DNA from: a virus
Taxonomy: Duplodnaviria > Heunggongvirae > Uroviricota > Caudoviricetes
DNA length: 51,959 nucleotides
Direction: 5' to 3' (one strand)
IMG/VR virus record: IMGVR_UViG_2574179769_000003
Span: 77,748 to 129,706 of that record
Shown: positions 3 to 30,400 of the stretch, in pieces
Layout of the letters: each line of letters opens with the position of its first letter
How positions within the stretch are numbered: position 1 is the stretch's first letter
Translations under genes and position numbers: made by a program
The notes under the pieces: model-generated
What the model saw: the letters and a program-made list of their open reading frames with translations, nothing else
Database searches by the model: none
Told to the model about the DNA's origin: nothing

Positions 3-968
3 GTTAATTGTAGTCCTGAAGAAATTATATTTACTTCAAGCGGTAGTGAAGCTAATAATTTAGCATTAAGATGCTATACAAACTCAGAAAATAAAGCTCA
101 TTTTATTTTAGCTGATCCTACTTCACATAAATCGGTTATCAAAAACAATTATTATTGGTCACTTGAAGTTGATAGTAATGGGGTTATTAATTTAAAATCA
201 TTAGAAAGCAAGCTTGCGAATACACATAACATACAATCTTACAAAATTGTATCAGTATGTGGAGCTAACAATGAAATTGGAACAATTCAGCCGATTAAAG
301 AAATTTCAAAACTATGCCATAAACACGATATAATATTTCATGTTGATGCAGTTCAACTGATTGCCGATAAGAAGATTGATGTTAAAGAGCTAGGAATAGA
401 TTTAATGAGTGTATCAGGTTCTAAAATCGGATGCCCTTCTGGAATTGGTTTTCTTTATGTTAAAAAAGGTATATCTGTAACCCCTTTAATACAAGGTGAA
501 CAGGAAAAAAGTATGCGTGGTGGCACAGAAAACATACCGTATATACTTGGACTCTCAAAGGCAGTAGAATTGTTAAATTATTCAAAATCTAATCATTTAA
601 AAAGTTTAAGAGATTATTTTATTAATAAACTCCTAATATTGCCTAATACATATCTAATTGGAGCAAATGGTAATGACAGATTATCCAATAATATAAATAT
701 CTGTTTTCATGGCATCGAAGCAGAATCACTGTTATCGTATTTAAATCTATATGAAATCTATGCATCTGGTGGTTCTGCCTGCAACAGTAAAAATTTAGAA
801 GCAAGTCACGTTTTAAAAGCAATAAGACTGCCTGAAGACGACCTTCATAGCTGTATCAGATTTTCGTTAAACGAAGATAGTACAGTTGATGAACTTGAAG
901 AAGCTTTTGAAGTAATTCAAAGATTCGTAATAAGACAAAATTTTTATAATGGTGGTGACGCTTCTTAG
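3..968 (+). CDS. iscS: Cysteine desulfurase, IscS/NifS class (5' end outside window)
   Basis: The frame is open from base 3: EEIIFTSSGSEANNLAL, NNEIGTIQP, FHVDAVQ, PLP-lysine motif SVSGSKIGCP, GGTEN and catalytic Cys in SGGSACNS. Its stop overlaps the GTG of the next gene. Confidence 0.92.
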   Translation, partial: VNCSPEEIIFTSSGSEANNLALRCYTNSENKAHFILADPTSHKSVIKNNYYWSLEVDSNGVINLKSLESKLANTHNIQSYKIVSVCGANNEIGTIQPIKEISKLCHKHDIIFHVDAVQLIADKKIDVKELGIDLMSVSGSKIGCPSGIGFLYVKKGISVTPLIQGEQEKSMRGGTENIPYILGLSKAVELLNYSKSNHLKSLRDYFINKLLILPNTYLIGANGNDRLSNNINICFHGIEAESLLSYLNLYEIYASGGSACNSKNLEASHVLKAIRLPEDDLHSCIRFSLNEDSTVDELEEAFEVIQRFVIRQNFYNGGDAS

Positions 969-3900
969 TGCCATCTATAAAAGATGGGGTATATATCCTT
1001 GGTTTAGATGCGAAGGATATATATCTAGCAAATTACAATAATGGCTGCATAGGATATAACCCAAGAAACAGTGCAGGAAATTTAAACACAGTTAAGTTTT
1101 TAAATAAGCTTGATTATTCACTTGATTTAATCAAATTGGTTGATGTTTATAAAACAACATATCGAAATAACAAGCTAACTTTCGAGGAAAACAATAAATT
1201 ATACTCTCAGAGAGTTATTAATGTAAGATTTAAATACTCAGTTAAAGAATATAATCGCTATTATGGGGATGTTTGGGTTAAATTTGGATATGATTTAAAT
1301 AAGGTTATAAATAAAATAGATGATCATATTTATATTGAAAATGGTGAGATTATTGCTATAGATACCAAAAAAGGTGTCAAAAATCCCCTATCAAAAAAAG
1401 AATTAGGTCGCTGGTTTCATTATAATCCACAAAAAAACAAATATTCAGTCTATGATTACAAACTTCATACAATAAAAAATGTTAGACAGTTAAGAGATGA
1501 ATTATACAGCAAAGGGTTTTACTGTGATGGGATTAAATTCACAAGATTTAAGCGTTCATCTGGCTCAGCCAGAGTTGGAAAATGTTTGTTTATTGATGAA
1601 CAATTGTACCCTAGAATGCATAAATGGGAATTGTGTAAACTTAAAGTTAATCAAGGAGATGAAGTTGATTTAGCAGCTCTAGAAGCCTATATAGCGCTTA
1701 CTTTATCATCTATAATAGATACTATTGAAATAGATCCCAAGAGTATTCTTGTAATAAACGACTATGAAAGTGAATTTGAAGAAGATGTTATTGAAACAAG
1801 GTTAGTTAATGGAGAACTTGTTACAAAGCCAAACAGAATCACATTAAAAAATAGCATTTGGGATGGACAGTCATTGATGGATGTCTCGCTGTTTGGTAAA
1901 TATGAGAACAAAGGAATGTTACTGCTAAGAAACCAGTTCTTTAAATCGTGCTGTTTTAACTGCAATATTCAAAAATGGTTCAAAGATAACGGAATAACAT
2001 CATTAGACCAATTGAATGGCAAGACAATCGCTGATGATATTAGTCAGATCAAGCTAATTACTACGCCAAGCAGTATTAAATATTTAAAGTTTGGAACATT
2101 AAAAAAATGGTTAAGAGCCATCTCGCCTACTTTTGGTGTAGTTAAACATGAAAAGAAAACTCATTATTTAAATGGCAAAGTTGTAAGGTGTCATTATCAA
2201 TTGATAAATTCATTACAAATGACAAAAAAAGAAGTTGAAGAATTGGTTAAACCATCATTGGAGTATCTTGATTTGATAAAAAGTGATCCAGCGGTGTTAA
2301 GACAATATATTAGGTATTCTAACGATATCAATCTCGACAATGAACCACTAATATATCAAAATGATATAACGTACAAGCTATTGGGATTAAATGATAAGTT
2401 TACTGAAACTGAAATGTACGCAATTTTAAAAAAACAAATTGTAGATTCCTATAAAAATAATCTAAGAGAAGGTCATTTATTTGTTAACGGTAACTATTCG
2501 ACTATATGTGGCAATCCGATTGAAATGTTACAACATTCAATTGGAAAATTTAACGGTGAATCTCAAATAGGTGTTGGTAAAATACACACAACTAGATTCA
2601 AATACAATAAAACAATTCTTGGATCAAGAAGCCCCCACATTTGCCAATGTAATATTTGGCTACCTCTCAACTCTTCTAATAAAGAAATTGATAAATATAT
2701 GAATACAACTGATGAAATAGTTTATGTAAACAGCATTAAAGAATCAACACTTGATCGTCTGAGCGGTGCGGATTAACCATAATAAGTCCGCCTTGAGTAG
2801 TAATATTCAAGTAAAAAGATTTGTGAACCTAGAAATCTAGGGTGTTTACTATTAAAATAGTAAGCTAACGAAGAATTTCCATTCATTAAAATGTTTGGAT
2901 AATATCGTGCCAAGCATAAAGAGAAATCTTTATGAAGGTGTAACGACTAGTGGAAACAGCCTTAACTGGTTAGACCACGTACATTTAAGGTGAAATTCCT
3001 TATTTGGAAGCGCAAGTCAGCCCTAACGCATATTTCGAGGGCTAATGAGATAGTCTACTCCCTACTTTCAATGAAAAGTAATTTAAAATATCTGGTAACA
3101 GAGGGTGTTATGGTTTGATTCAGACACAGTAATGATTACTGATAATCCGATATTAATCAAAGCTGGAAGAAAAAATTATTCAAATTTTAAAGTATCAATA
3201 AATAATGTTGAGGCAAAAAAAATCAAAAGATATTATACAGCGAAGCAAAAATCAGATCTTGATTATAAAACTTCTAAAAATCAAATCGGAGTAATAATTA
3301 ATTTATCGCAAGAACTAAATTCAAAAGTTTGGAATAAACTGAACAATGGTGGACTGATAAATGAAATTCAACAAATATATCATGATACATGTCAGTTAAA
3401 TGTAATGTCAAATATAGAAATAGATGCAGCAAAAAAAGAATTTGATGTTGCAATGAGCAAAGAAATTGAGTGTATTCGAAGCAGATACAAGGAGGAAACA
3501 TGGGATAATAAAACGGTTAAACCGTATTTTTTTGGAGTAATAGTAAAAAACAAAAGCTTTTACAATTGTAAAAAAATAGGTAAAAAAATCAAATATAAAA
3601 AAATGGACACTTCAATGGACTATTTGGAATGTGCTATAAACAACTGGAAACCCATAAGAAAAGAATATGGGAAAACATACTGTCATTTTTATGAAATTAT
3701 TGACAAGTCATCATATGACAATAGTAAGGTTAATAGGAAGCAAATAGCTAAAATTATGTCAGAAATTAGGAAATTCGATTCAACAACCAAATATTTATTT
3801 TCAAAAACAAATTTTGATCATAGTATAAAAACAGCTTATTATCTTATACAAAGAGAAAAAGTAATAAGATTTATTGGTCAGCTAAAATTAAATAAAAGTA

Positions 3901-4106
3901 CCATAATTTATATCTTAAAAAAATTTGACACCGATGAATATAGAAAATATTATAAAACATTGTTTAAGGTTCTTTTTGGTTATCCCAATTTAAGTTTTTA
4001 TGAAGCTATAAAAAAAAGCAAGCTTCCTATTGAAGATTTACATGAAAGCGAAGATGGTAAAATAAATATTTTAGGCTATATTTTTTCAAAAAAATGCAAT
4101 TTTTAG
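968..4106 (+). CDS. yonO: YonO-like single-subunit (two-barrel, eukaryotic-RdRP-related) phage RNA polymerase; join(968..2773,3114..4106), 932 aa after splicing
   Basis: Motifs FKRSSGSARVGKCLFI, SIWDGQSL, LLRNQFFKS and RSPH. Splicing restores the catalytic LSGAD|FDSD (DxDxD). Position at the head of a structural operon matches SPbeta yonO. Confidence 0.9.
2774..3113 (+). mobile_element. Group I intron (ORF-less, 340 nt) in RNAP gene
   Basis: P1: exon GCGGAU (2768-2773) pairs with GUCCGC (2786-2791), giving a U.G pair at the splice site. P7: GACUA (gtaacgactag ~2940-2950) with UAGUC (gagatagtc ~3047-3056). Terminal G3113. Removal restores the frame and the DFDSD motif. Confidence 0.92.
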
Positions 4107-4264
4107 AGATATTTTCACAAATCGCAAAAAAAATACGTGCTTAAAACTCGGAATTTTACGAAAAAAACTTAACTTTCAAATTCTGAAGAGGTATGGTAAG
4201 GAGTAAGAAACTCTATCCCAAAAGTGCTTTTTTACGCCCTTTTATGAATAAAAGGAGTAAAATT

Positions 4265-5494
4265 TTGAAAGAATCATTAAGAAAAAAGCCTGATGAGGGC
4301 AAATATCAATACATCTGGCGTATAGGTCAGTATGTTGATAGTGGGGTTTTACCTCACTGGAAACATATATCAGAAGATATTAATCGTGAATTGGGTGTTC
4401 CAGAAGATGAATTTCTTTCGGAATCTGCCTATCGCAAGATGTATCAAAGTGCAAAAAAATTTTATGATGAAGGAATTTTTAGTGACAGAGAAAATGAAAG
4501 CAGTATTAATGAATTAAATATTTTAAAAAGAGAACTGCAAAAAGAAAGAGTAAAGTTACAGACTGAAAAAAATGAATACAACAAATGGCTACGAGAAGAA
4601 GCTAGAGATGAATTGTTATTAGAAAAATTTATTGAATCTGTAAAATCCTTAAAAACATCTTTTGTTCCAGATTATATTGAACCAAAACATAACAGCAAAG
4701 GTTATTTATTATGTTTTGGTGATGAGCATTTTGGTGCAGAATTTGAAATTAGAGGCTTATTCAATGAAATAATCAATTCCTATAGTCCAGAAATATTTGA
4801 AGATAGAATGATTGAATTATTTAACCAAACTTTGGAAATTATTAAAAAAGATAATATAGACACTCTTCATATTTTTTCTATGGGTGATTTTAGTGATGGA
4901 ATTTTAAGAGTATCACAATTAATGAAACTTCGATATGGAATAGTTGACAGTACTATTAAATACAATAATTTTATTTGCACATGGTTGGAAAAATTAACCA
5001 ACTATGTAAGAGTTGAATTTCACACTGTAGTTCAAGCAAATCATACTGAGCTAAGAATGTTATCTCAGCCTAAAGGAACCTTTGTTAATGACAATGTGTC
5101 AAAATTTTTATTAGAATTTATCAAAATTAGATTGGAAAATAACAAAAATTTTAAACTGCATACCAATCCAACAGGATACATCTATGCGACCATAGCAGGA
5201 AGCACTCTTTTTGGAATTCATGGAGAAGTTAAAAATATGGAAAAAGCTATGAAAGACTATTCTAAAATATATAATACTAATATTGATTATTTGATCGGAG
5301 GACATTTACATCACACAAAAGTGGAAGAAGTTGGTAAAAACAGTGAAGTAATTAATATACCTAGTATTATAGGGATTGATTCCTATTCTATGTCATTGCG
5401 AAAATCTTCTGATTCTGCTGCCAAACTAATAGTTTTTGAAGAAAATAAAGGTAAAGTTTGCGAATATACTTTAAAACTTTCCTGTCAATCATAA
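4265..5494 (+). CDS. Calcineurin-like metallophosphoesterase with N-terminal helical/coiled-coil region
   Basis: Motifs GDEHFG, MGDFSDG, QANH, GIHG and GGHLHH. Probable TTG start at 4265 after AAGGAG (the ORF track starts at 4193). Confidence 0.8.
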   Translation: MKESLRKKPDEGKYQYIWRIGQYVDSGVLPHWKHISEDINRELGVPEDEFLSESAYRKMYQSAKKFYDEGIFSDRENESSINELNILKRELQKERVKLQTEKNEYNKWLREEARDELLLEKFIESVKSLKTSFVPDYIEPKHNSKGYLLCFGDEHFGAEFEIRGLFNEIINSYSPEIFEDRMIELFNQTLEIIKKDNIDTLHIFSMGDFSDGILRVSQLMKLRYGIVDSTIKYNNFICTWLEKLTNYVRVEFHTVVQANHTELRMLSQPKGTFVNDNVSKFLLEFIKIRLENNKNFKLHTNPTGYIYATIAGSTLFGIHGEVKNMEKAMKDYSKIYNTNIDYLIGGHLHHTKVEEVGKNSEVINIPSIIGIDSYSMSLRKSSDSAAKLIVFEENKGKVCEYTLKLSCQS

Positions 5495-20406: not shown

Positions 20407-20428
20407 AGAGAGGCACCCTCTCTTTTTT
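20407..20428 (+). terminator. Intrinsic terminator
   Basis: AGAGAGG-CAC-CCTCTCT plus T tract. Confidence 0.65.
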
Positions 20429-20452: not shown

Positions 20453-21418
20453 ATGGCCATAGGTAAAAAAAGGTCAAGGCGGGTAAAACTGCATGATAAG
20501 GAAAAATTAAAAATGATCAATCCTGAAACACTTAAGTGCTGGAAAAAATACCAGCAGTACATGAATGTAAAGGAATTGTCAGAAAAAACGATTTATAATT
20601 ACAACAGCGATTTAACACAATGGTTTATCTTTATTTTAGACAAACAGTTTAATCAGTCTGTTTTGGATTTAGGTGAAGATGATATTTTAGAGTTTGTAAC
20701 ATTTGCTAAAAGTCAGGGAAACAATACAGAAAGAATTAAACGAAGATTGTCAAGTATTTCGTCATTTTATAAGTTTTTAAAACGTAAGAAAATATTAAAT
20801 TCAGACAGTCCTACTGAATATATTGAAAGACCAAAAAGAGGTTTGCCTGTTGTAACACAAACATATTTGTCAAAAGAACAAATTGAATTGATGAGAAAAA
20901 AACTTGATGAACTTGGAGATTTACAACTAAAAACTTATGCTGAGTTATCACTAAGTACTATGGCTAGAGTTAATGCCATTGCTCATCTTAGATGGGAACA
21001 GATTGATTTAGAAAATCGTGTTTGTAACGATGTGTTAGAAAAAGAACAAAAGTATGTGACTTTATTTTTTTCTGAAAAAGTAAAAAAATTATTAGTACAG
21101 TTAAAAGAATATAGAACACATTATGATATTGATGATTTTGGATGGTTGTGGCGAACTCCATACACCAATCAATACGACTGCGTTTCCAATGGGACGTTAG
21201 CAGGTTGGTGTTCAAAAATTGGACAAATGATTGGTATTTCAACTCTTCACCCACACGACTTTCGCCATTCAGGTAGCAATCAACTTTCTATATCTGGAAT
21301 GCCTTTAGAAGATATTTCCACACTTCTCAATCACATTTCGACTGAAGTTACTAAAAAACATTATTTATTGCCCAACAATAAGAAAATATCAGCTTTAAAA
21401 GATAAATTTGAGGTATAA
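20453..21418 (+). CDS. XerC/D-like tyrosine recombinase (YomM-like position)
   Basis: N-terminal SAM-like core-binding domain; catalytic residues TMARV (R), EKEQK (K), HPHDFRH (HxxR) and LLNH...TKKHY (H, Y). Confidence 0.9.
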   Translation: MAIGKKRSRRVKLHDKEKLKMINPETLKCWKKYQQYMNVKELSEKTIYNYNSDLTQWFIFILDKQFNQSVLDLGEDDILEFVTFAKSQGNNTERIKRRLSSISSFYKFLKRKKILNSDSPTEYIERPKRGLPVVTQTYLSKEQIELMRKKLDELGDLQLKTYAELSLSTMARVNAIAHLRWEQIDLENRVCNDVLEKEQKYVTLFFSEKVKKLLVQLKEYRTHYDIDDFGWLWRTPYTNQYDCVSNGTLAGWCSKIGQMIGISTLHPHDFRHSGSNQLSISGMPLEDISTLLNHISTEVTKKHYLLPNNKKISALKDKFEV

Positions 21419-21421
21419 CAA

Positions 21422-24400
21422 ATGACAAACTTTAAAGTACAGTTAGGCGTTAAATTAGATAAAAATGCTGGTAAAGCACTGAATAACCAGTTAAACAATC
21501 AAAAGATTATTGCAAATATTAGTAAGTTTAATATAACTAAATCTGCAATTAGTGACATTAAAAAACAATTAAACTCATCAAAATTCAGTATCAATATAGA
21601 TGCTAGTGGTGTTAATAAGCAGATCAACAGTGTTGTATCTAATATTAATAAAATGAATAAACTTGCAATAGGCTTAAATAACCTTGGTAAGTTAAACATT
21701 GATGACAGTGGACTTCAACAAAGACTTGCTTCAATAACTAAACAATTTGAAGCTATTAAAAGAATGTCTGATTTAGGAGCACAATCAATTGCGTTAAGTA
21801 AGCTTGATGGTAATTTTAAAATATTATCAAGTGACATCAGTACATATAATAAGGAACTCGCAAATGGTAAAAGCATAAATTTCTTAGCAGACCAGGCCAA
21901 AGCAGTTAATAACGTTAAAAAATATATAAACGAAAATACTAAAGCTGCAAAAGAATATGGTACTGCATTAGAAGAATCTCGAAACAAAATGCAAAATGCA
22001 ACAAATGTCAAAGAATTGACAACTGCAAGAAAACAATTCGCAGCTTTGACAGCAGAAATCCAAGCCTCTGGAAACAGTGGTAGAAGTTTTAGTGATGAAC
22101 TTAAAAACTCTATGAGTAAGTTTGGTCAGTGGATTAGCGCTGGAACTATTGTAATGCAAGTTGTTAGAAGTGCTAAAGACTTATTTAAAAATGTAGTTGC
22201 AATAGATTCAGCAATGACAAATCTATATAAGGTGACTGATGAAACTGATAGAAAATACAATCAGTTTTTAACTAACGCTAGTTCAAAAGCGGTTGAATTA
22301 GGTAGAAGTCTAAGTTCTCTTATTGAGATGACTGCCACATGGGCAAAATTAGGATTTAGTTTAGATGACAGTGCAAAACTTTCTGAAGTTTCGGCTATAT
22401 ATGCAAATGTTGGAGAAGTAGATGATGAGACAGCAGTTAAAGATATCGTAACTGCATTAAAAAGTTTTAATATCGAAGCAAAAAATGCAATTACTGTTGT
22501 TGATAAACTTAACAAACTTGGAAACGAATTTGCAACAGATTCAGCTTCTTTAGGTGATGGATTAAAAAATTCAGCTAGTGCATTAGCTTTTGCTGGAAAT
22601 GATATTAACCAAACATTGGCTATGATTACTGGGGGTTCAGAAATAACTCAAAATGCTTCTGAGCAATCTAATGCAATAAAAGTATTAAGCATGCGTTTGC
22701 GAGGTAAATTTTCATGCCTCCATATAGAGAAATCTATATGCTATGTTTCGTAAAAAACATAGATAACAACTATATCGGTTAAAAAACAATGGGATGCTAA
22801 AGACCGAGGAAAGATTTGTAATATCAATAAAATATAACTATTTAATTTTTCCATAACAAAGTAAAAAAGAAGGAATATGAAATATACATTTGAAAAAATA
22901 CAAGAAGCTTTAAAACTTCATAATTATAAATTGGTTAATAAAAACATGAATATTTCATCTATAATCACTAAATCAAAATTATTGTGCACTGACAATGATG
23001 GGTATTATGTTTATGTTATCTTAGATAAATTGATACATAGAAAATCAAAATTTAGAAGATTTTCAAATTCAAACAAATATACTATCGACAATATCAACTT
23101 TTATTTAAAGTCAAAAATAGGTAACAATTTTACTTGTTTATCTGAAAAATATATTAACAATCAAACAGAGTTGCTATTTAGATGCAATAGATGTGGAGAA
23201 GTTGTAAAAAAGAAATGGATTAATGTTTATAGAAAAGGAATAAATAGAACCCCTATATTATGTCCTAATTGTGATGGTAGAATAGAATCGCTACATGCAT
23301 CAATATTAAAACAAGTTTTTATGTACAACTACCCTGATACTATTTGTGAAGATAATTCTTGTCGAAATCCAATTACAAATAAAATAATGCCAACTGATAT
23401 TGTTAATCATAGACTAAAAATTGCAATAGAAGTACAGAGTGAATATCACGATAATGAATATAGTAAAAAAAAAGATTTAATAAAAAAAGAATTTTGGATT
23501 GCTAGGAATTTTAAATTTTATGCATTAGATATAAGAGATTACACAGTATTAGAAATGTGTAGAATATTTTTTAATATTAGTGAATTGCCAAGTTATATAA
23601 ATTATGATTATAGTAATAAATTAAATATTAAAAACATTCAAAATATGCTAAATAAAGGTAAAAACATTCCAGAGATAGCAAATATTTTAAATATAGATAA
23701 ACACAGAATTTATGATGCTATATATTCAAAAAAATTAATATATCCTAATAATTATCAACGTCCTGATTGTTCCCCAGTTGTGCAGACAGATTTAAGTGGA
23801 AACATTATTAACAAGTATAAAAGTATTTCAGAAGCACAATTAAAGTCGGGAGTTAAAGCATCTAATATCGCTTCTTGTTTACGTAAGAAAAGAAATTATT
23901 CTTCTGGATATTACTGGTATTATTTACATGATTATGATAAATATAAGTTTAGAACCAATAGATTTGAAAAATTTAGGCAACCAATAGATATGTTTGATAA
24001 AAATAATAAATATATAAAATCATTTAATGCAATTATAGAAGCATCAAAAGAATTGAATACAAACAATTACAGTATTTGGAGAGTTGCTGAGGGAATTAGA
24101 AAAAGTTTATTAGGTTACAAGTTTAAATATAAGAAATAACGATATTACAAAAATCCGTAGAGACTGCAGGATGTTTGTGGCAACATAAACATTGAAGTTG
24201 TTCCACTCTCTAATAGATATTAGAAATGGTAATATACAGTCCGATCTCACGCTATAATCCCAAATAAAAAAAATGAAACGTGAGAGTTAGCCAGAAATGA
24301 CTAACCGCTATAAAGTTTATAGTCAGTAGCCAGTCATGGTGAAAGTAACAGAAATGATGAAGGGTGATCTAGAAAAACTAGGCGAAGAATATGAAAATGT

Positions 24401-27400
24401 TGAATCGATAAGTAAAATTCAAACCCAAATACTTAATCTAACTAAGGGAAATGTTAATATTTTTGATGATAGCAGAAATTTTAAAAGTACCTATGAGATT
24501 ATTGAAAAAATAGCAAAAGTTTGGGATCATATATCACAAACTGATCAAGCTGATCTTCTTGAAATTATAGCAGGCAAATGTTTGCCTGATTGTGTAGTAA
24601 TACATAATATGAATACACTTAATTGCAGGTAATCCCTTAGAGCCTTACACTACAATAGTTAGGAAACTAAACTATGATAGTTTTACAACGTAAGGATTGG
24701 GCGTTCGTGCAGCGAAGTACCCTAACGTATTCCATAGAACATATGGTGCTTTAGACGAGGGTAAACGTTCAACGACTAGATTCATGTCGAGACTTAGACT
24801 TGAGAATAAAGGTGGAAATCCTGAATATCTAAGTCAACAATCGTAGGGCGCAATTGTAAATGGCGTGGGTGAAACTCCCTTAAATCGAAAAAGGTACCCC
24901 TTTATTTTTAAAAAGGGTGAAGAAATAGTCTACTCTCACACGAAAGTGTGAGTGTTGTTAGTTAATAAAAATCTTAGCGATTAGGATTCCTTATTATAAA
25001 TTTAACGAAATAGAAAAAATATTAAAAAACAAATTAACAACATGAAATATTTTACGAGTATTTCAAAACATAAACGAAACAAAGAGCGAACCAGGTTGCT
25101 GCGTTAATTCAATCAGCACAATCAGGACAAATGCAAAAAGCACTTCAGGCTTCTATCAACTCCGAAGGCTCAGCATTAAAGGAACAGGAACGTTGGTTAG
25201 ATTCAATTGAGGCTAAAGCTCAGCAATTAGAAGCGTCATGGGAATCTTTATCAACTACAATGTTAGATAGCAGTGCTATCAAAGTCAGTATAGATTTATT
25301 AACAGACCTACTTCAGGTAATTAAGAATCTTGCTGAACTTATAGGTAGTGCTGGCACTATAGGAGCAATAAGTGGAGGACTTCTAGGTGCAAAAGGTCTG
25401 GGTTGGGTAAATGTATGTTTATACATATACAGTTGCCGACATAATCTATGCCCAGATAAAGCTTAAACGTGAGTTTAACGAGCTAATAACAATAATCGTA
25501 TTATTAGCAAGAAGCTTTTGGCAAAAGAGGTTAATTTGGGTAATGGTTAAGATTCCATTATCGTATGTAATAAACACATACTAAGTCGGGAAAACACTAT
25601 ATATTGAAAACCTAAATAGATATATAGTATAATCCGCAGCGATATCTCATATATAACAGTGTATATGAGAACGTTCAGAGAGTATAAACCTCAATGGATA
25701 TGAGAACGATATCTCCCCTATTCATTAATGTGTACTCCAGACTGGTCTTAGAATTAGGTTAGATTGTCTAAGATAAAAATCTAAACAAAATTAATTATTT
25801 TTACTATAATATTACATCAATTTAAAATTATGTGAAATTATGTTATTTTCATACAGATGATTTAAATCATTTTAAAATACATATATAATTAATATGTTAT
25901 AGAAGAAAATGTCCATATTAGTGAGCATATAAGAACAATATTGTCGCTTAACAATTGGAAGGGGAGTAAAATGAGAAAGACAAAAATAGCAGTTGAAAAT
26001 TTAGCTGAATTGACTATTCGGCAAATTAATAATTTGGATTTTGAAGATGAAAAGTTGTTTATTGAAAAAAAAAATAAAAAGCCTCTAGCTTTTTCAACAA
26101 AAATAAGTAATAGAAGTTTTGGGAGAGGAAATCCACTTTTAGCAAGACGAAAAATAACATCAATAGAATCAATTGATAAAAGACTGGATGAATTAATTAA
26201 AAAATGTCAATAAAAGAAAAAGAATCATTGTTGTCTATATCTCAAAACTCAAATGAAACCTTAGAAGAAAATGATGAAAATATGATTAAAACTGATTGTA
26301 AGTTACTTTGTAGTAAAATTTCTGAGCTAAATGGTATTTTTGAAGTCTATGTAAATAAAATAAATCCAATGATATTTACGTATGAAATTTTGGCTGATAA
26401 TTATCCTATAGAGATATTGAATGAAATACGTTCTATTTTTACACATTTAAGCAGATGTACATTTGATACTGATGAAAAAAATGTAAATAATAACTTAACT
26501 AAAGCATATAGCCATGCAAAAAGAGCAATTTTAGATTGTTATAAATATAACAGTTTGGCATATGCTGATAAATACTATGAATTCATGGATCAATATAAAA
26601 ATGTTGATTTATCTTTAATTGATAATGGCGAATTTTTAATAAAAATTACTAACAAACTTTGTTTAGCGAACTCTTTGATGATTCAAGCAAAGAGATCAGA
26701 AGCTGAAAACAAATCATTGGATGAACAATATACTAAGTATGAAAATGCATATTTTGAGTATTCAGAAATATATAAAATTCTTGAAAATACACAAATAAAA
26801 GCTGAAAATCTTAAGCAAAAAGCAATTATAAAAAGCAATAAAGAAAACAGAAAAATTCTTATTAATAATATAATAGGGATTATAGGAGTCATAGCTACTA
26901 TTATAAGTATAGCAACCGTTTTTATATAATTGAAATTTAAATCTAGACAGACAAGTTTCTGTCTTTTATTTTTGTTAAAATGTTACGATTGTAAACGGAT
27001 TGTAAGAAGAGTGTATTAGTTACATTTGCTTTTAAATTTAACAGAGCAATAAAAAGCTAGCAGTTAGTATTGCTTCTCTTATCTAGTTGCTTGACACCCA
27101 TGTGTTTATAAGTTATAATATACTTGTTAAATTGGAATAACTATTTTACTCGATCAAAGTTACAGGTGGTTATTTTTTGTTTGATTATCCTTATCAATAA
27201 TGACAAAAAAAACAATTTAACAATCAAACTTATTAAGGTAAAACAACTTTATTTATCTCACGCACTCCAAAACGTATGAGGGAGTTGTTTTACTTTGGGC
27301 AAAAATAAATTAAATATAGTAATCTCAGTACTATTTTTCTTTAATTGCTTGATATTTAAATATCCATAAGTTATAATATATTTGCCTATGATGGCAAGAA

Positions 27401-30400
27401 GAAATTTGATAACTTGTTAATCAAATTTGTTAATGTAGAATAACTACCTCAGCGTTGTCCAAAACAGAAGTGGTAGTTATTTTTTATTTTAGCAAAAAAG
27501 CTAAAAAATCTAGTAACAATAATACTAGATTTTTTTAGTTGCTTCTCCCCTACCATTTATATTTGCATCTTTTACACATATATTGTTTTCCAATAGAGCT
27601 ACTTGCCAACCCTAAAGTTAGTACCCCTGCCATTCTACTTGTTGCAGTAACACGTTTTGTATTAGTTGAACCACAGTTAGGACATTTGACAACAAACTTC
27701 TCTTGTGTTGGGTTAGGTTCAGGTTTTAGCTTTTGATGACCATATTTTTTGCTAGTTTCTCGTTTAAACTCTTGCCATAACTTATCATCTTCTTCTGTAT
27801 AATCAAATGTTCTTGCCCTACGATATAAAGATTTAAACTTTTCATTAAGTTCTTTACTAAAATCAGGGTTGTTTACACAATATTTTTCAAAAGCTTTATT
27901 TCTAGCAATTTCTGCTTTTTCAAGATTTGTGGTAAAAAAATAAAACTCAGTGTTTATGATATCAGTGTCGCAAACCTCACATTTTCCCTCACTATGCCAG
28001 GTCGTAGACCCACATTTGGGACATATTTCTATAAATATTCTTTTTTGCAAACATTCTTGAATATCGATCCCACAATTTGGACAGATTTTTGCTTTATCTG
28101 ATACGTTATGATTACATTCTGGGCACTCTATTAGCATTATTATTTCCTCCAATACATTTATATTGTAACATATTTTGAAAATAATTAAAATTAAAAACAG
28201 TTAGATAGATTCATTGTTTTCAGAAATATTACAATACAAAAGAGATGCTAGTGATAGTGAATTAAAACTAAATAAAGTACAGAAAATATTTAATTATTTT
28301 AATGATAGCGAAAGTAAATCAATTACCGAATTAGCTAAACAATTTGAAAACTTAGACGATAAAATAATAGGATACCTTAGAACTGTTAAAAGTGGTAAAA
28401 CTGATATAGAAGATTTTAAAAATTACCAAATGTCATGGGGACAAGCAATTAAGGAAAATACAATTGGAATAAATGGATTTATTCCTAAATTAGCTTCTTT
28501 TGGAAAAACCATTCTATCTATAGGTGGAAATATGGTTGCAATGATGGCTATAGCTAAAAGTTTTGAGCTTGCTTTTAAAATAGTCGATTCATTAGTTGTT
28601 TACTCAAGCAGAACTAGATAAAGCAGTTTCTGATGCAGTAAATAGCATTTCTGATTCAGAAAGCAAAATTGAAGATTTAAAGAATCAATTAGATGATGTA
28701 TCAGTGAAGATAGATGAGCTTAATTCTAAAGAACATCTTTCATTTACTGAAACAAGCGAATTAGAAAGATTAAAAGAAACTAGAAAAGAATTAGAGACAC
28801 TGTTATCGCTAGAGGATAACCTATTAGATAATAAGCAAAGAGAATTAGCATTAGCTCAAGCAGATGCATATGGTAAATATCACACATATTCTCATGATAG
28901 AAATAATGATAATGGTACAACTGTTTTAGATGACTACAAACAAACACGTGAATCATACAAGTTTAATAATGTAGACTCAGGATATCTTTTTGATGATGAA
29001 AGCACTGATATTTCTACACTCTTAGTAGGTTATGAGCAGTTGGGTGCAGAGTTATCAAAACTAAAAGAAGGTACAGAAGCATGGGCTAACAAATATAGCG
29101 ACATGGTTTCTGTTAGTTCTAGATTAAAAGAATTATTGGCTGAACAATATACAGTTATTGACAGCATAAGACCAATATATAATGAAATTGCAGAAAAGCA
29201 AAAATCAAACCAACCCCTATCTTCTGATGAAAAAGATATTTTATATGTTTATGAAGACGCTCAGGCATATGCTGATTTAATATTACAAATAACTGATCCT
29301 AATACATATAATCAGATTAAATTTGATGAGATATTCGATATTGAAGGAATCGAATTAACTAAAGAAAAGTTAATTGAATTGTTAAAAGCTGGAGAGTTAG
29401 TTGACTTAGGCAACTACCCTATTTTAGCCAAGGCAATAAAAGACATTGATTTCGCTTCAACTGAAGGAAAAACCAATCTTGAGATATTTAATCAGGAGTT
29501 AAAATCATTAATAACTTCAGAAAATGAAATTGATTTTAGTTTTGACATAGCTGATGGTATGTCTGAAACAGTTGAAATACTTGATGATATGGCTGATCGT
29601 TTAACTCAATTAGCTGATCTAAAAGATGCATTAAATGGTGGATGGACTCTTGGCATTGAAGAAGCAAGAGAATTTGCCAATGTATTCCCTGAAATATTTA
29701 ACAATGCGGTTATTACTAGAGATGGTTTAATTAAATTAGATGAAGATATAGCCAATAATTTTATCACTGCAAAAGAAGCTGAGATAAAAGCCGACGGAAC
29801 AGCAAGAGAACAGGTTTTATTAAATGCAAAATCTGAACTAGAAGGTAAGAAAGCTGAAGCTGAAGCAAAACTTGAATTAGCTAATGCAGTTGCTAATGGT
29901 GAATTAAAGATGTCTAGAGAGCAGATTGAATTAATGGCTCAAGGAAGACAACAGTTAATTGACTATTTGATTGAGTGTGGTGCTACTCAAGTTGAAGCAG
30001 AACAGGCAGCTAACGCAGCAATGCAGGGAGACATGATTCTTTACAACAAACTGGTTGGACAAGTTGCTGATGAAACATCAAACAATTTAGCTAACGCCCT
30101 AGCTGATGCTGCTACTAATTCTAAAACCAATATGGATGGTATGATTGTAAATGCCAACGCTGCCAATAAAGCTTTTGCTGCCCTTGCAAAACAAATAAAG
30201 GCTGCTTCAAGCGGGGAAGTTACTGGCGAATATAATGGTAAGGCAAGTGCTGGTGGAAGTAAAACAAAAACCACTAAATCTACTCTTAGTGTTGTGTCAA
30301 CTCCTTTTAATGCTATAAAAGGTATAATATCTTCTTCATTCAACATGCCTGATTATATTGATAAGATTGAATTAGATTTAAGTGAGTACAATCAGGCTAT

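Follow-up and report, generated by a model that had tools for sequence, protein, structure and literature searches.

How can the two halves of an essential phage gene yield one protein when 2.8 kb of DNA with genes on both strands lies between them? This question is raised by a stretch of provirus DNA of 51,959 nucleotides (positions 77,748 to 129,706 of IMG/VR record IMGVR_UViG_2574179769_000003), which was analysed as a whole and is called the window here. The window makes up the right-hand portion of an IMG/VR provirus record of 129.7 kb, with a G+C content of about 29%, and contains an SPbeta-like tail module, in which a YomN domain was found. The tape measure protein (TMP) of this module is encoded in pieces; its gene is interrupted three times, and the third interruption, at 25404-28204 (2.8 kb), is the element studied here. 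An initial annotation, made from the sequence alone, had described the element as a cargo-carrying group I intron that serves as a neutral landing pad for morons or defence genes. We conclude that 25404-28204 is probably a functional group I-type intron at a recurrent TMP insertion site of an SPbeta-like gut prophage, and that some of the other attributes given to it need revision.

The relatives used for comparison were obtained by protein look-ups plus one DNA pattern scan. Contig L005 is near-identical to the window; L007 and L062 share 80% and about 77% amino acid identity with it in TMP exon 3, respectively; and L055 is a metagenome relative with about 35% identity in exon 3. L003, L004 and L075 provided 3' ends only. 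Both intron ends are known in only two relatives, both of which have the same P10 guide. The guide of L055 would call for an exon 4 beginning with AUACAAU. Among 51 metagenome matches to a 17-mer of the core, L055 was the only true relative. A core 19-mer had no match in viral contigs, a core 22-mer had none in genome contigs, and a search for related loci with exon 4 as the query found none.

Probable joining of the tape measure gene across the third interruption

Exon 3 (25092..25403, plus strand), which ends at the element, matches residues 842-944 of the PHROGs family phrog_4211 and is homologous to the uninterrupted TMPs of Thomasclavelia phage TR-TP1 and Enterocloster phage PMBT24, which cross the homologous site in one frame. 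Exon 4 (28205..32891, plus strand) follows the element and is a single, intact frame of 1558 amino acids in six near-identical contigs. In the window, this frame is broken by one extra T at 28595-28601 (about 28599-28601), where the window reads GTTGTTTACT and P0001/L005 reads GTTGTTACT. The window and L005 differ over 24.6 kb by five single-base indels (at 20416, 28599, 37434, 42415 and 42712) and by no substitution, and the exon-4 frameshift is therefore probably an assembly error. All five indels look like gene-breaking assembly errors.

The downstream half has no evident means of being translated by itself. No in-frame ATG, GTG or TTG occurs in the first 73 (L004) and 79 (L062) codons of exon 4, which encode conserved protein, and no Shine-Dalgarno-like motif was found before in-frame candidate starts of exon 4 in the four relatives examined. 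An independent start of the downstream half, the objection that the initial annotation had itself raised, was thus not encountered in L004 and L062. Together with the intact 1558-amino acid frame and the uninterrupted homologues, the lack of start signals in this conserved coding stretch implies that the downstream half must be joined to the upstream half.

The 3' splice site (28197..28211, plus strand) reads ACAGUU-A-G28204 and then AUAGAUU, that is, the predicted 3' strand of P9.0, the terminal G and the exon strand of P10. The guide sequence AAUCUAU matches the first exon-4 bases AUAGAUU (28205-28211) at seven of seven positions. G28204 is the sole G in 25800-28400 that is followed by such a full match, and it stands, behind a TAG, exactly where the exon-4 frame opens. 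Splicing at this point would be in frame (...GAKGLG-IDSLF...). In L003, L004 and L075, TMP similarity starts at the first exon-4 residue, and the exon-4 frame of L062 has ID as its first residues, directly at the splice site. The string ACAGU(U/C)AG, followed directly by AUAGA, is invariant in the window, L003, L004, L062 and L075, with diverged DNA on both sides of it. Within this string, the strand that pairs in P9.0 is CAGUU in the window, whereas L062 and L075 have CAGUC there, so that a G.U pair becomes G-C and the pairing is kept. Judged from these sequence comparisons, the RNA signals for joining the TMP halves are under selection. We confirmed from the sequence the in-frame restoration that the initial annotation had described and found P1, P10, P9.0 and the terminal G28204 where it had placed them.

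The intron-less TMP site would read GGTCTGGGT directly followed by ATAGATTCA. When an intron-less allele was sought in viral contigs with a 14-mer spanning the junction, all 108 matches were chance matches with no TMP similarity.

Probable ribozyme part and neighbouring introns

The ribozyme part (25404..25781, plus strand) is about 380 nucleotides long, has a fold z-score of -4.3 and comprises the P1 loop hairpin, the guide, P2, P2.1, P3, two extra hairpins, P4-P6, P7, P8, P9.0 and P9. L007, L062 and L055 have retained it, with compensatory changes in P1, P2, P2.1, Pa, P6 and P9, and RNAalifold counted nine pairs changed on both sides. In P1, UCUGGGU at the end of exon 3 (25397-25403) pairs with GCCCAGA (25450-25456) through seven pairs, of which the one at the cleavage site is U.G. 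UCUGGGU/GCCCAGA is common to the window, L007 and L062, and L055 has UAAGGGU/GCCCUUA: its last exon codon is AAG instead of CUG, and its guide matches, giving two compensatory pairs with the U.G retained. A guide strand that varies with the codon of the host gene is hard to account for except by a functional P1. The internal guide (25443..25456, plus strand) consists of the P10 guide AAUCUAU (25443-25449) and the P1 guide GCCCAGA (25450-25456), which are contiguous, as they are in group I introns. This contiguous guide matches at 14 of 14 positions, a result equalled nine times when the first 120 bases of the intron were shuffled 20,000 times.

Further helices of the plus strand follow in order. 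P2 (25458-25464 with 25512-25518), which encloses P2.1, occurs in three variants that are Watson-Crick throughout (AAAGCUU/AAGCUUU, AAGGCUU/AAGCCUU and AGAGCUU/AAGCUCU), and the pairs of P2.1 (25482-25489 with 25501-25508) are kept through several double changes. GAGGUU (25527..25532) is tentatively assigned as the 5' strand of P3, pairing with AACCUC (25687-25692). Hairpin Pa (25539-25546 with 25555-25562) keeps eight of eight pairs in L055, where four of them are changed; hairpin Pb (25563-25568 with 25576-25581) is replaced by a longer hairpin in L055, and a 149-nucleotide insertion in L007 sits exactly in its loop. The P4-P6 domain (25585..25675) contains P4, formed by G(U)CGGG and UCCGC, the P5 hairpin and P6/P6a. 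P5 remains a helix despite its differing sequence, and the P6a stem is wholly different in L062 and L055, yet paired. Mapped by eye on the Rfam consensus, AAUCCGCAGC would be the Q element and GUUCAGAGAGUA the R element; they match the group I consensus strings AAuC.CGCAGC and GUUCAaAGACUA.

P7 (G-A-GAGUA at 25678-25684 with UACUC-C at 25733-25738), which encloses the 3' strand of P3 and the long P8 hairpin (25693-25726), appears on the same mapping to have the bulged A followed by a G-C pair of the canonical guanosine site. Its GAGUA/UACUC differs from the consensus GACUA/UAGUC in that the central C-G pair is swapped to G-C on both strands. The whole stretch from P7 through P3' and P8 to P7' is invariant in four relatives. 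The 5' strand of P9.0, GACUG (25740-25744), would pair with CAGUU (28198-28202) at the far end of the element. The core had been said to end with P7, at 25745; it extends further, since a covarying P9 hairpin (25746-25752 with 25767-25773), with four pairs changed on both sides in L055, follows and conservation continues to about 25781. In the loci that we collected, the core is thus conserved and covaries, including P1 with the exon, and the terminal G and the 3' motif are conserved, as the initial annotation had anticipated.

The string ACAGUU of the 3' splice site is also invariant in the P1 loop of all four relatives (25429-25434 in the window), and the L055 P1 loop (about 1168-1176, minus strand) contains AACAGUUAG, the same 9-mer as the intron 3' end in the window. 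The P1-loop copy may hold the place of the distant 3' end by pairing with GACUG (25740-25744) before that end has been transcribed.

Several observations weigh against a functional group I intron. The proposed P3 shows no covariation, its 3' strand being invariant, and has one mismatch in L055. Pa and Pb together (51 nucleotides) separate the 5' strand of P3 from J3/4, which is a non-canonical topology for group I introns. RNAalifold offers a rival pairing of AGUCGGG (25585-25591) with CCAGACU (25737-25743). P10 has only six of seven matches in L062, and the sense strand has at least four hairpins resembling intrinsic terminators downstream of the core and ahead of the 3' splice site. The Rfam group I model RF00028 did not match 25380-25800 (421 bases) even at E<=10, nor did it match L007, L062 or L059, and E-value scans of 24000-29500, L060 and L002 gave no group I match for this intron family. 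The sensitivity of such scans is limited, because a whole-window scan at the gathering threshold found nothing and missed a standard group I intron in the same gene, which was seen only in a 551-base stretch. Since two hairpins precede J3/4 and P3 lacks covariation, the RNA is, as far as its predicted fold tells, an atypical group I intron, not a textbook one.

With regard to the rival pairing, the RNAalifold consensus mispairs P4, preferring AGUCGGG/CCAGACU over it; this pairing may be an alternative fold. A U-to-A change in L062 disrupts it and is neutral for P4 with a bulge.

The standard intron just mentioned is intron 2 of the TMP gene (24565-25090; RF00028, 65.9 bits). It lies between exons 2 and 3, 450 nucleotides upstream of the element, and resembles introns of Staphylococcus phage K (lysK intron). 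Exon 1 (21422-22753, plus strand) and exon 2 (24336-24632, plus strand) match phrog_4211 residues 402-784 and 779-840, colinear with exon 3, and are separated by an open reading frame (ORF) for a NUMOD-type endonuclease according to Pfam (22877-24139). Relatives have further interruptions of exon 4 that are absent from the window (L003 4591-9060 and L004 3428-6530). In the numbering of joined exons 3 and 4, one of these interruptions follows residue ~1168 and holds a 432-amino acid DUF4379 ORF, and another follows residue ~1500 and holds a GIY-YIG/NUMOD ORF in L003. This TMP gene thus appears to gain and lose introns freely. Introns in phage tail and TMP genes have been described before.

A gene for a tyrosine-recombinase-like protein (Phage_integrase and SAM-like domains) lies at 20453-21418, directly 5' of exon 1. 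The same gene is found 5' of the TMP gene in L055 (3093-4157, minus strand), which is an unexpected position for an integrase.

In two other phages, L002 (6337-6900) and L059 (2835-3331), the same TMP site, after ...GIG, is occupied by another conserved intron-like RNA. It contains the R- and S-like strings CCAGAG(A/G)CUG and A(A/G)AUACAGUCC and has no Rfam score. L002 was first taken as an example of larger cargo, with GmrSD_N/NsnA-like and nuclease genes after the RNA. It was set aside and not used, as the exon-4-like part of its TMP lies upstream of the part resembling exons 1-3 in its contig.

Variable cargo and a constant zinc-ribbon gene

Between the ribozyme part and the 3' splice site, we found what the initial annotation had described: three genes on both strands, promoters, terminators, and promoter-hairpin units without ORFs. 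The cargo operon (25971..26929, plus strand) consists of an ORF of 80 amino acids (25971-26213) that overlaps one of 241 amino acids (26204-26929), and is followed by an intrinsic terminator (26945..26974, plus strand). Two promoter-hairpin units come next (27091..27490, plus strand; 27091-27182 and 27349-27490, with repeats D1, D5 and D6), with a long hairpin (27233-27298, plus strand) between them. Their promoters score 12/12 at 27091 and 11/12 at 27349, and fold z-scores in this region are -2.2, -4.2 and -4.3. The third gene, on the minus strand (27499..28168; ATG at 28137, stop at 27550), encodes a zinc-ribbon protein (Pfam Zn_ribbon_3/DZR) and has its own terminator hairpin (27499-27540, minus strand) and an extended -10 box, TGTTACAAT (about 28163-28171, minus strand), which is kept in the alignment of relatives.

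The predicted RNAs of the two units are about 55 and 105 nucleotides long, with stems of eight and 11 pairs and U-runs, and the units share the segments GAATAACTA and GGT(G/A)GTTATTTTTT. Rfam does not match the units, and apart from the -10 region they are not repeated elsewhere in the genome. Because the similarity of their promoters to other genome sites is confined to that region, we make no claim of a shared operator. The L055 intron holds analogous but unrelated units. Just after P9, L055 also contains a short ORF (about 560-690, minus strand) that is similar to part of the TMP (...YAVLKDIAKVWNDLSDVDKEKILKVLADK, as in exon 2 of the window); this is a duplicated exon fragment within the intron and may be a recombination scar.

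The core stays constant and the cargo differs among relatives, in agreement with the initial annotation. L007 and L055 have nothing in common with the window downstream of P9. The complete L062 intron (965-3309, 2345 nucleotides) has the two-gene operon and the zinc-ribbon gene without promoter-hairpin units, and L003 has two unrelated small ORFs ahead of its zinc-ribbon gene. The middle of the intron evidently turns over while the core stays. The notion that the cargo is free throughout did not hold, because the zinc-ribbon gene is fixed at the 3' splice site in all relatives with a known 3' end.

No homing-nuclease or transposase family was found in the cargo ORFs in Pfam, PHROGs or PADLOC; specifically, the intron ORFs gave no LAGLIDADG, GIY-YIG, HNH, His-Cys, PD-(D/E)XK or EDxHD family in these three resources, and no TnpA or TnpB (IS200/IS605, IS607) or other transposase family was found in any cargo ORF in Pfam and PHROGs. 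A weak Zn_ribbon_IS1595 match (E 0.006) lies below the cut-off.

The label of defence genes found no support from PADLOC, Pfam, PDB sequence searches or fold searches. The 241-amino acid protein has 177 homologues, none with a Pfam family, and is modelled by AlphaFold2 as an all-helical bundle with a C-terminal membrane helix (mean predicted local distance difference test score, 90). R76 and H81 are invariant in its family, and their Rx4H spacing is the sole hint of a HEPN nuclease, a group defined by a four-helix fold with an Rx4-6H motif. The assignment to HEPN or defence proteins gained no support from PADLOC, Pfam (26 members), a PDB profile search, Foldseek and VIA-align, which returned only generic helical bundles; Foldseek of the model reached HepT only at E 0.9. 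The 80/241-amino acid pair also occurs outside any intron in L063, beside HepT/MNT genes. There (1860-4283), a small ORF and a 235-amino acid homologue adjoin a HepT-like/nucleotidyltransferase toxin-antitoxin pair, which hints at a defence-island setting.

The zinc-ribbon gene behaves differently from the rest of the insert. It is found directly at the 3' splice site of the window/L005, L003 (about 91% amino acid identity), L004, L062 and L075 (44%), so that every relative with a known 3' end has this antisense gene beside its 3' splice site. Homologues occupy the same place in the distant introns L060 and L061, which belong to prophages of [Clostridium] asparagiforme DSM 15981 (NZ_CP102272.1, at about 3.924 Mb) and Enterocloster lavalensis KCTC 15153. 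Their TMP exon 3 is 45% identical, their TMPs are interrupted at the same site, and an RNA of 810 nucleotides is 98% identical between the two strains; after this shared RNA, their sequences are wholly different, each ending in a zinc-ribbon homologue on the opposite strand. The protein has three zinc ribbons with invariant Cys pairs. Besides the start Met, its invariant residues are the Cys ligands and a few residues of the C-terminal ribbon motif (P, S, G, L, K), and its alignment contains no conserved catalytic-looking residues or nuclease motif. Its fixed position beside the 3' splice site suggests that the zinc-ribbon gene is part of the element, with a role in mobility, maintenance or expression control, rather than free cargo. 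The absence of homing endonucleases and transposases that had been reported therefore stands for known families; with a constant zinc-ribbon gene, 'no homing function' can be claimed solely for known nuclease families.

From this variable middle between fixed ends, a wider reading may be drawn, which we offer tentatively: an intron lineage at one TMP site in SPbeta-like phages of gut Firmicutes might act as a gene-cargo bay, in which accessory genes and small-RNA units are repeatedly gained and lost between P9 and a fixed 3' module. Such cargo would be self-expressed, spliced from an essential late mRNA, shielded from imprecise deletion, and carried along with the intron. A rival reading, which we consider rather unlikely, takes the element as a ribozyme plus a zinc-ribbon gene that encodes its own mobility, maintenance or splicing factor of a so far unrecognised kind, the other genes being later passengers. 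It overlaps with the main explanation but contradicts the picture of a neutral landing pad with no homing function. Nothing in the 3' half is constant across the window/L005, L003, L004, L062 and L075 except the zinc-ribbon gene; the 98%-identical ribozyme parts of L060 and L061 precede unrelated 3' parts that each still end in its homologue; and in L060 it is the only ORF noted in the interruption when the sequence was read by eye. Against such a factor, only the Cys ligands and few ribbon residues are invariant, and neither a nuclease motif nor, with Pfam, PHROGs and PADLOC, a nuclease family turned up. In addition, the C-terminal ribbon of 50 amino acids is widespread (2432 library matches, with many different N-termini), and the L076 homologue (36% identity) adjoins a gene devoid of TMP similarity and lacks the splice motif.

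Splicing model, alternatives and known parallels

The proposed splicing model involves three modules: the 5' ribozyme of about 380 nucleotides (P1 to P9), which would hold the entire catalytic core; the variable middle bay, represented in the window by the two-gene operon and two promoter-hairpin units; and a constant 3' part, in which the antisense zinc-ribbon gene, under a promoter of its own and followed by its own terminator, precedes ACAGUUAG, after which the intron would end. A late transcript would span the entire element, and P9.0 (GACUG/CAGUU) together with P10 (AAUCUAU/AUAGAUU) would draw the distant 3' end to the core. GGU would then be joined to AUA by two transesterifications, giving ...GAKGLG-IDSLF..., and the expected junction in spliced RNA is GGUCUGGGU directly followed by AUAGAUUCA. 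The cargo genes would be separate transcription units, whose presence in the intron would be tolerated because the TMP message loses them on splicing. A YonO-like RNA polymerase of the phage probably reads through the several sense-strand terminators. YonO of SPbeta is highly processive, and the late genes of that phage are made as one transcript (PMC5467207). As a gene for such a polymerase lies in the window, it is plausible that the phage enzyme passes the cargo terminators. Splicing, terminator read-through, the timing of cargo expression and the benefit of the cargo are steps that we infer. Most simply, the locus would be read as a 2.8-kb intron that is spliced in cis out of the late transcript, and we consider trans-splicing, a dead gene and DNA excision less probable.

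The same terminators could, in principle, point to trans-splicing, in which transcription stops within the cargo and a second transcript with exon 4 is joined through P9.0 and P10. Several sense-strand terminator hairpins are present, the core lies wholly in the 5' part so that the 3' part needs just 12 paired nucleotides and the terminal G, and natural trans-spliced group I introns occur in organelles (for example, PMC10027690). We nevertheless regard this as improbable: no convincing sense promoter was found between the last terminator and the 3' splice site, a stretch filled by the antisense gene, and the two strong sense promoters are directly followed by their own terminators.

It is highly improbable that the TMP was broken by an island inserted beside a relic ribozyme, leaving a defective prophage or a split TMP. 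The exon-4 frameshift in the window and the failure of Rfam to recognise the RNA would fit such a history, but the frameshift is one of the five substitution-free indels against L005 and is probably attributable to assembly. Moreover, the core, the splice motifs and the 1558-amino acid frame of exon 4 are kept down to 33-35% amino acid identity in the exons, P1 has changed along with the exon, and exon 4 in L004 and L062 has no start codon of its own.

Excision of the 2.8 kb as DNA by a recombinase, for instance the Phage_integrase-family gene directly 5' of exon 1, is extremely unlikely, because direct repeats at the two junctions are absent, RNA pairings that covary with the exon are left unexplained, and the same gene precedes the TMP gene in L055, whose upstream TMP part is uninterrupted, and so looks like a fixed feature of these phages.

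If the splicing model is correct, phages would have a new way to hold moron-type genes, inside an essential gene that tolerates only precise removal. It would also follow that a ribozyme can locate its 3' splice site over a distance of 2.4 kb in spite of intervening terminators and an antisense gene, which bears on the coordination of late transcription with RNA folding. In practice, gene callers split such genes into seemingly unrelated ORFs, so that TMP length and cargo genes are misannotated. The interruptions in [Clostridium] asparagiforme DSM 15981 and Enterocloster lavalensis KCTC 15153 open the idea to bench testing.

To our knowledge, the cargo of a group I intron, if there is any, is assumed to be a homing nuclease or, in the case of IStrons, a transposon. 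A group I intron with multi-gene cargo other than nucleases, which the initial annotation had thought to be undescribed, did not appear in the literature searched, which does not prove novelty. The closest parallel in architecture is the IStron, in which 1-2 kb of protein-coding DNA separates a 5' ribozyme from the 3' splice site and the host gene is restored by splicing (10.1101/2023.11.20.567912). The IStrons of Clostridioides difficile and Clostridium botulinum (IS200/IS605 or IS607) resemble the present element in combining a 5' ribozyme with intron coding DNA in low-GC Firmicutes hosts. In contrast to them, the element has no TnpA, TnpB, other transposase or transposon ends, and its RNA was not found by the Rfam model that detects IStron ribozymes. 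Its cargo varies, lies on both strands with one gene antisense, and has its own promoters, and the element occupies one homologous gene site, whereas IStrons occur at scattered sites.

Phage group I introns with homing endonuclease ORFs are well known from T4 (td/I-TevI, nrdB and sunY), SPO1, and Staphylococcus phages K and Twort. They reside in conserved genes, with the ORF in a peripheral loop or the 3' part and sometimes under its own promoter, and carry one sense-strand nuclease gene in about 0.25-1.1 kb. Intron 2 of the same TMP gene is of this ordinary phage type and phage K-like. The element, unlike these introns, measures 2.8 kb and holds three ORFs, two ORF-less units and an antisense gene, with no recognisable nuclease. 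Antisense homing endonuclease genes are reported from group I introns of nuclear ribosomal DNA (PMC9548176). These introns share with the element a protein gene opposite to the intron RNA strand, but they are eukaryotic and encode His-Cys box nucleases, whereas the present gene is a phage zinc-ribbon gene with bacterial promoter and terminator signals.

Finally, phage morons are independent promoter-gene-terminator units inserted between phage genes. The cargo resembles them in its consensus promoters and terminators and in the occurrence of its operon in an unrelated context in L063. In contrast to morons, it lies inside the coding sequence of an essential structural gene, where predicted splicing would render it harmless.

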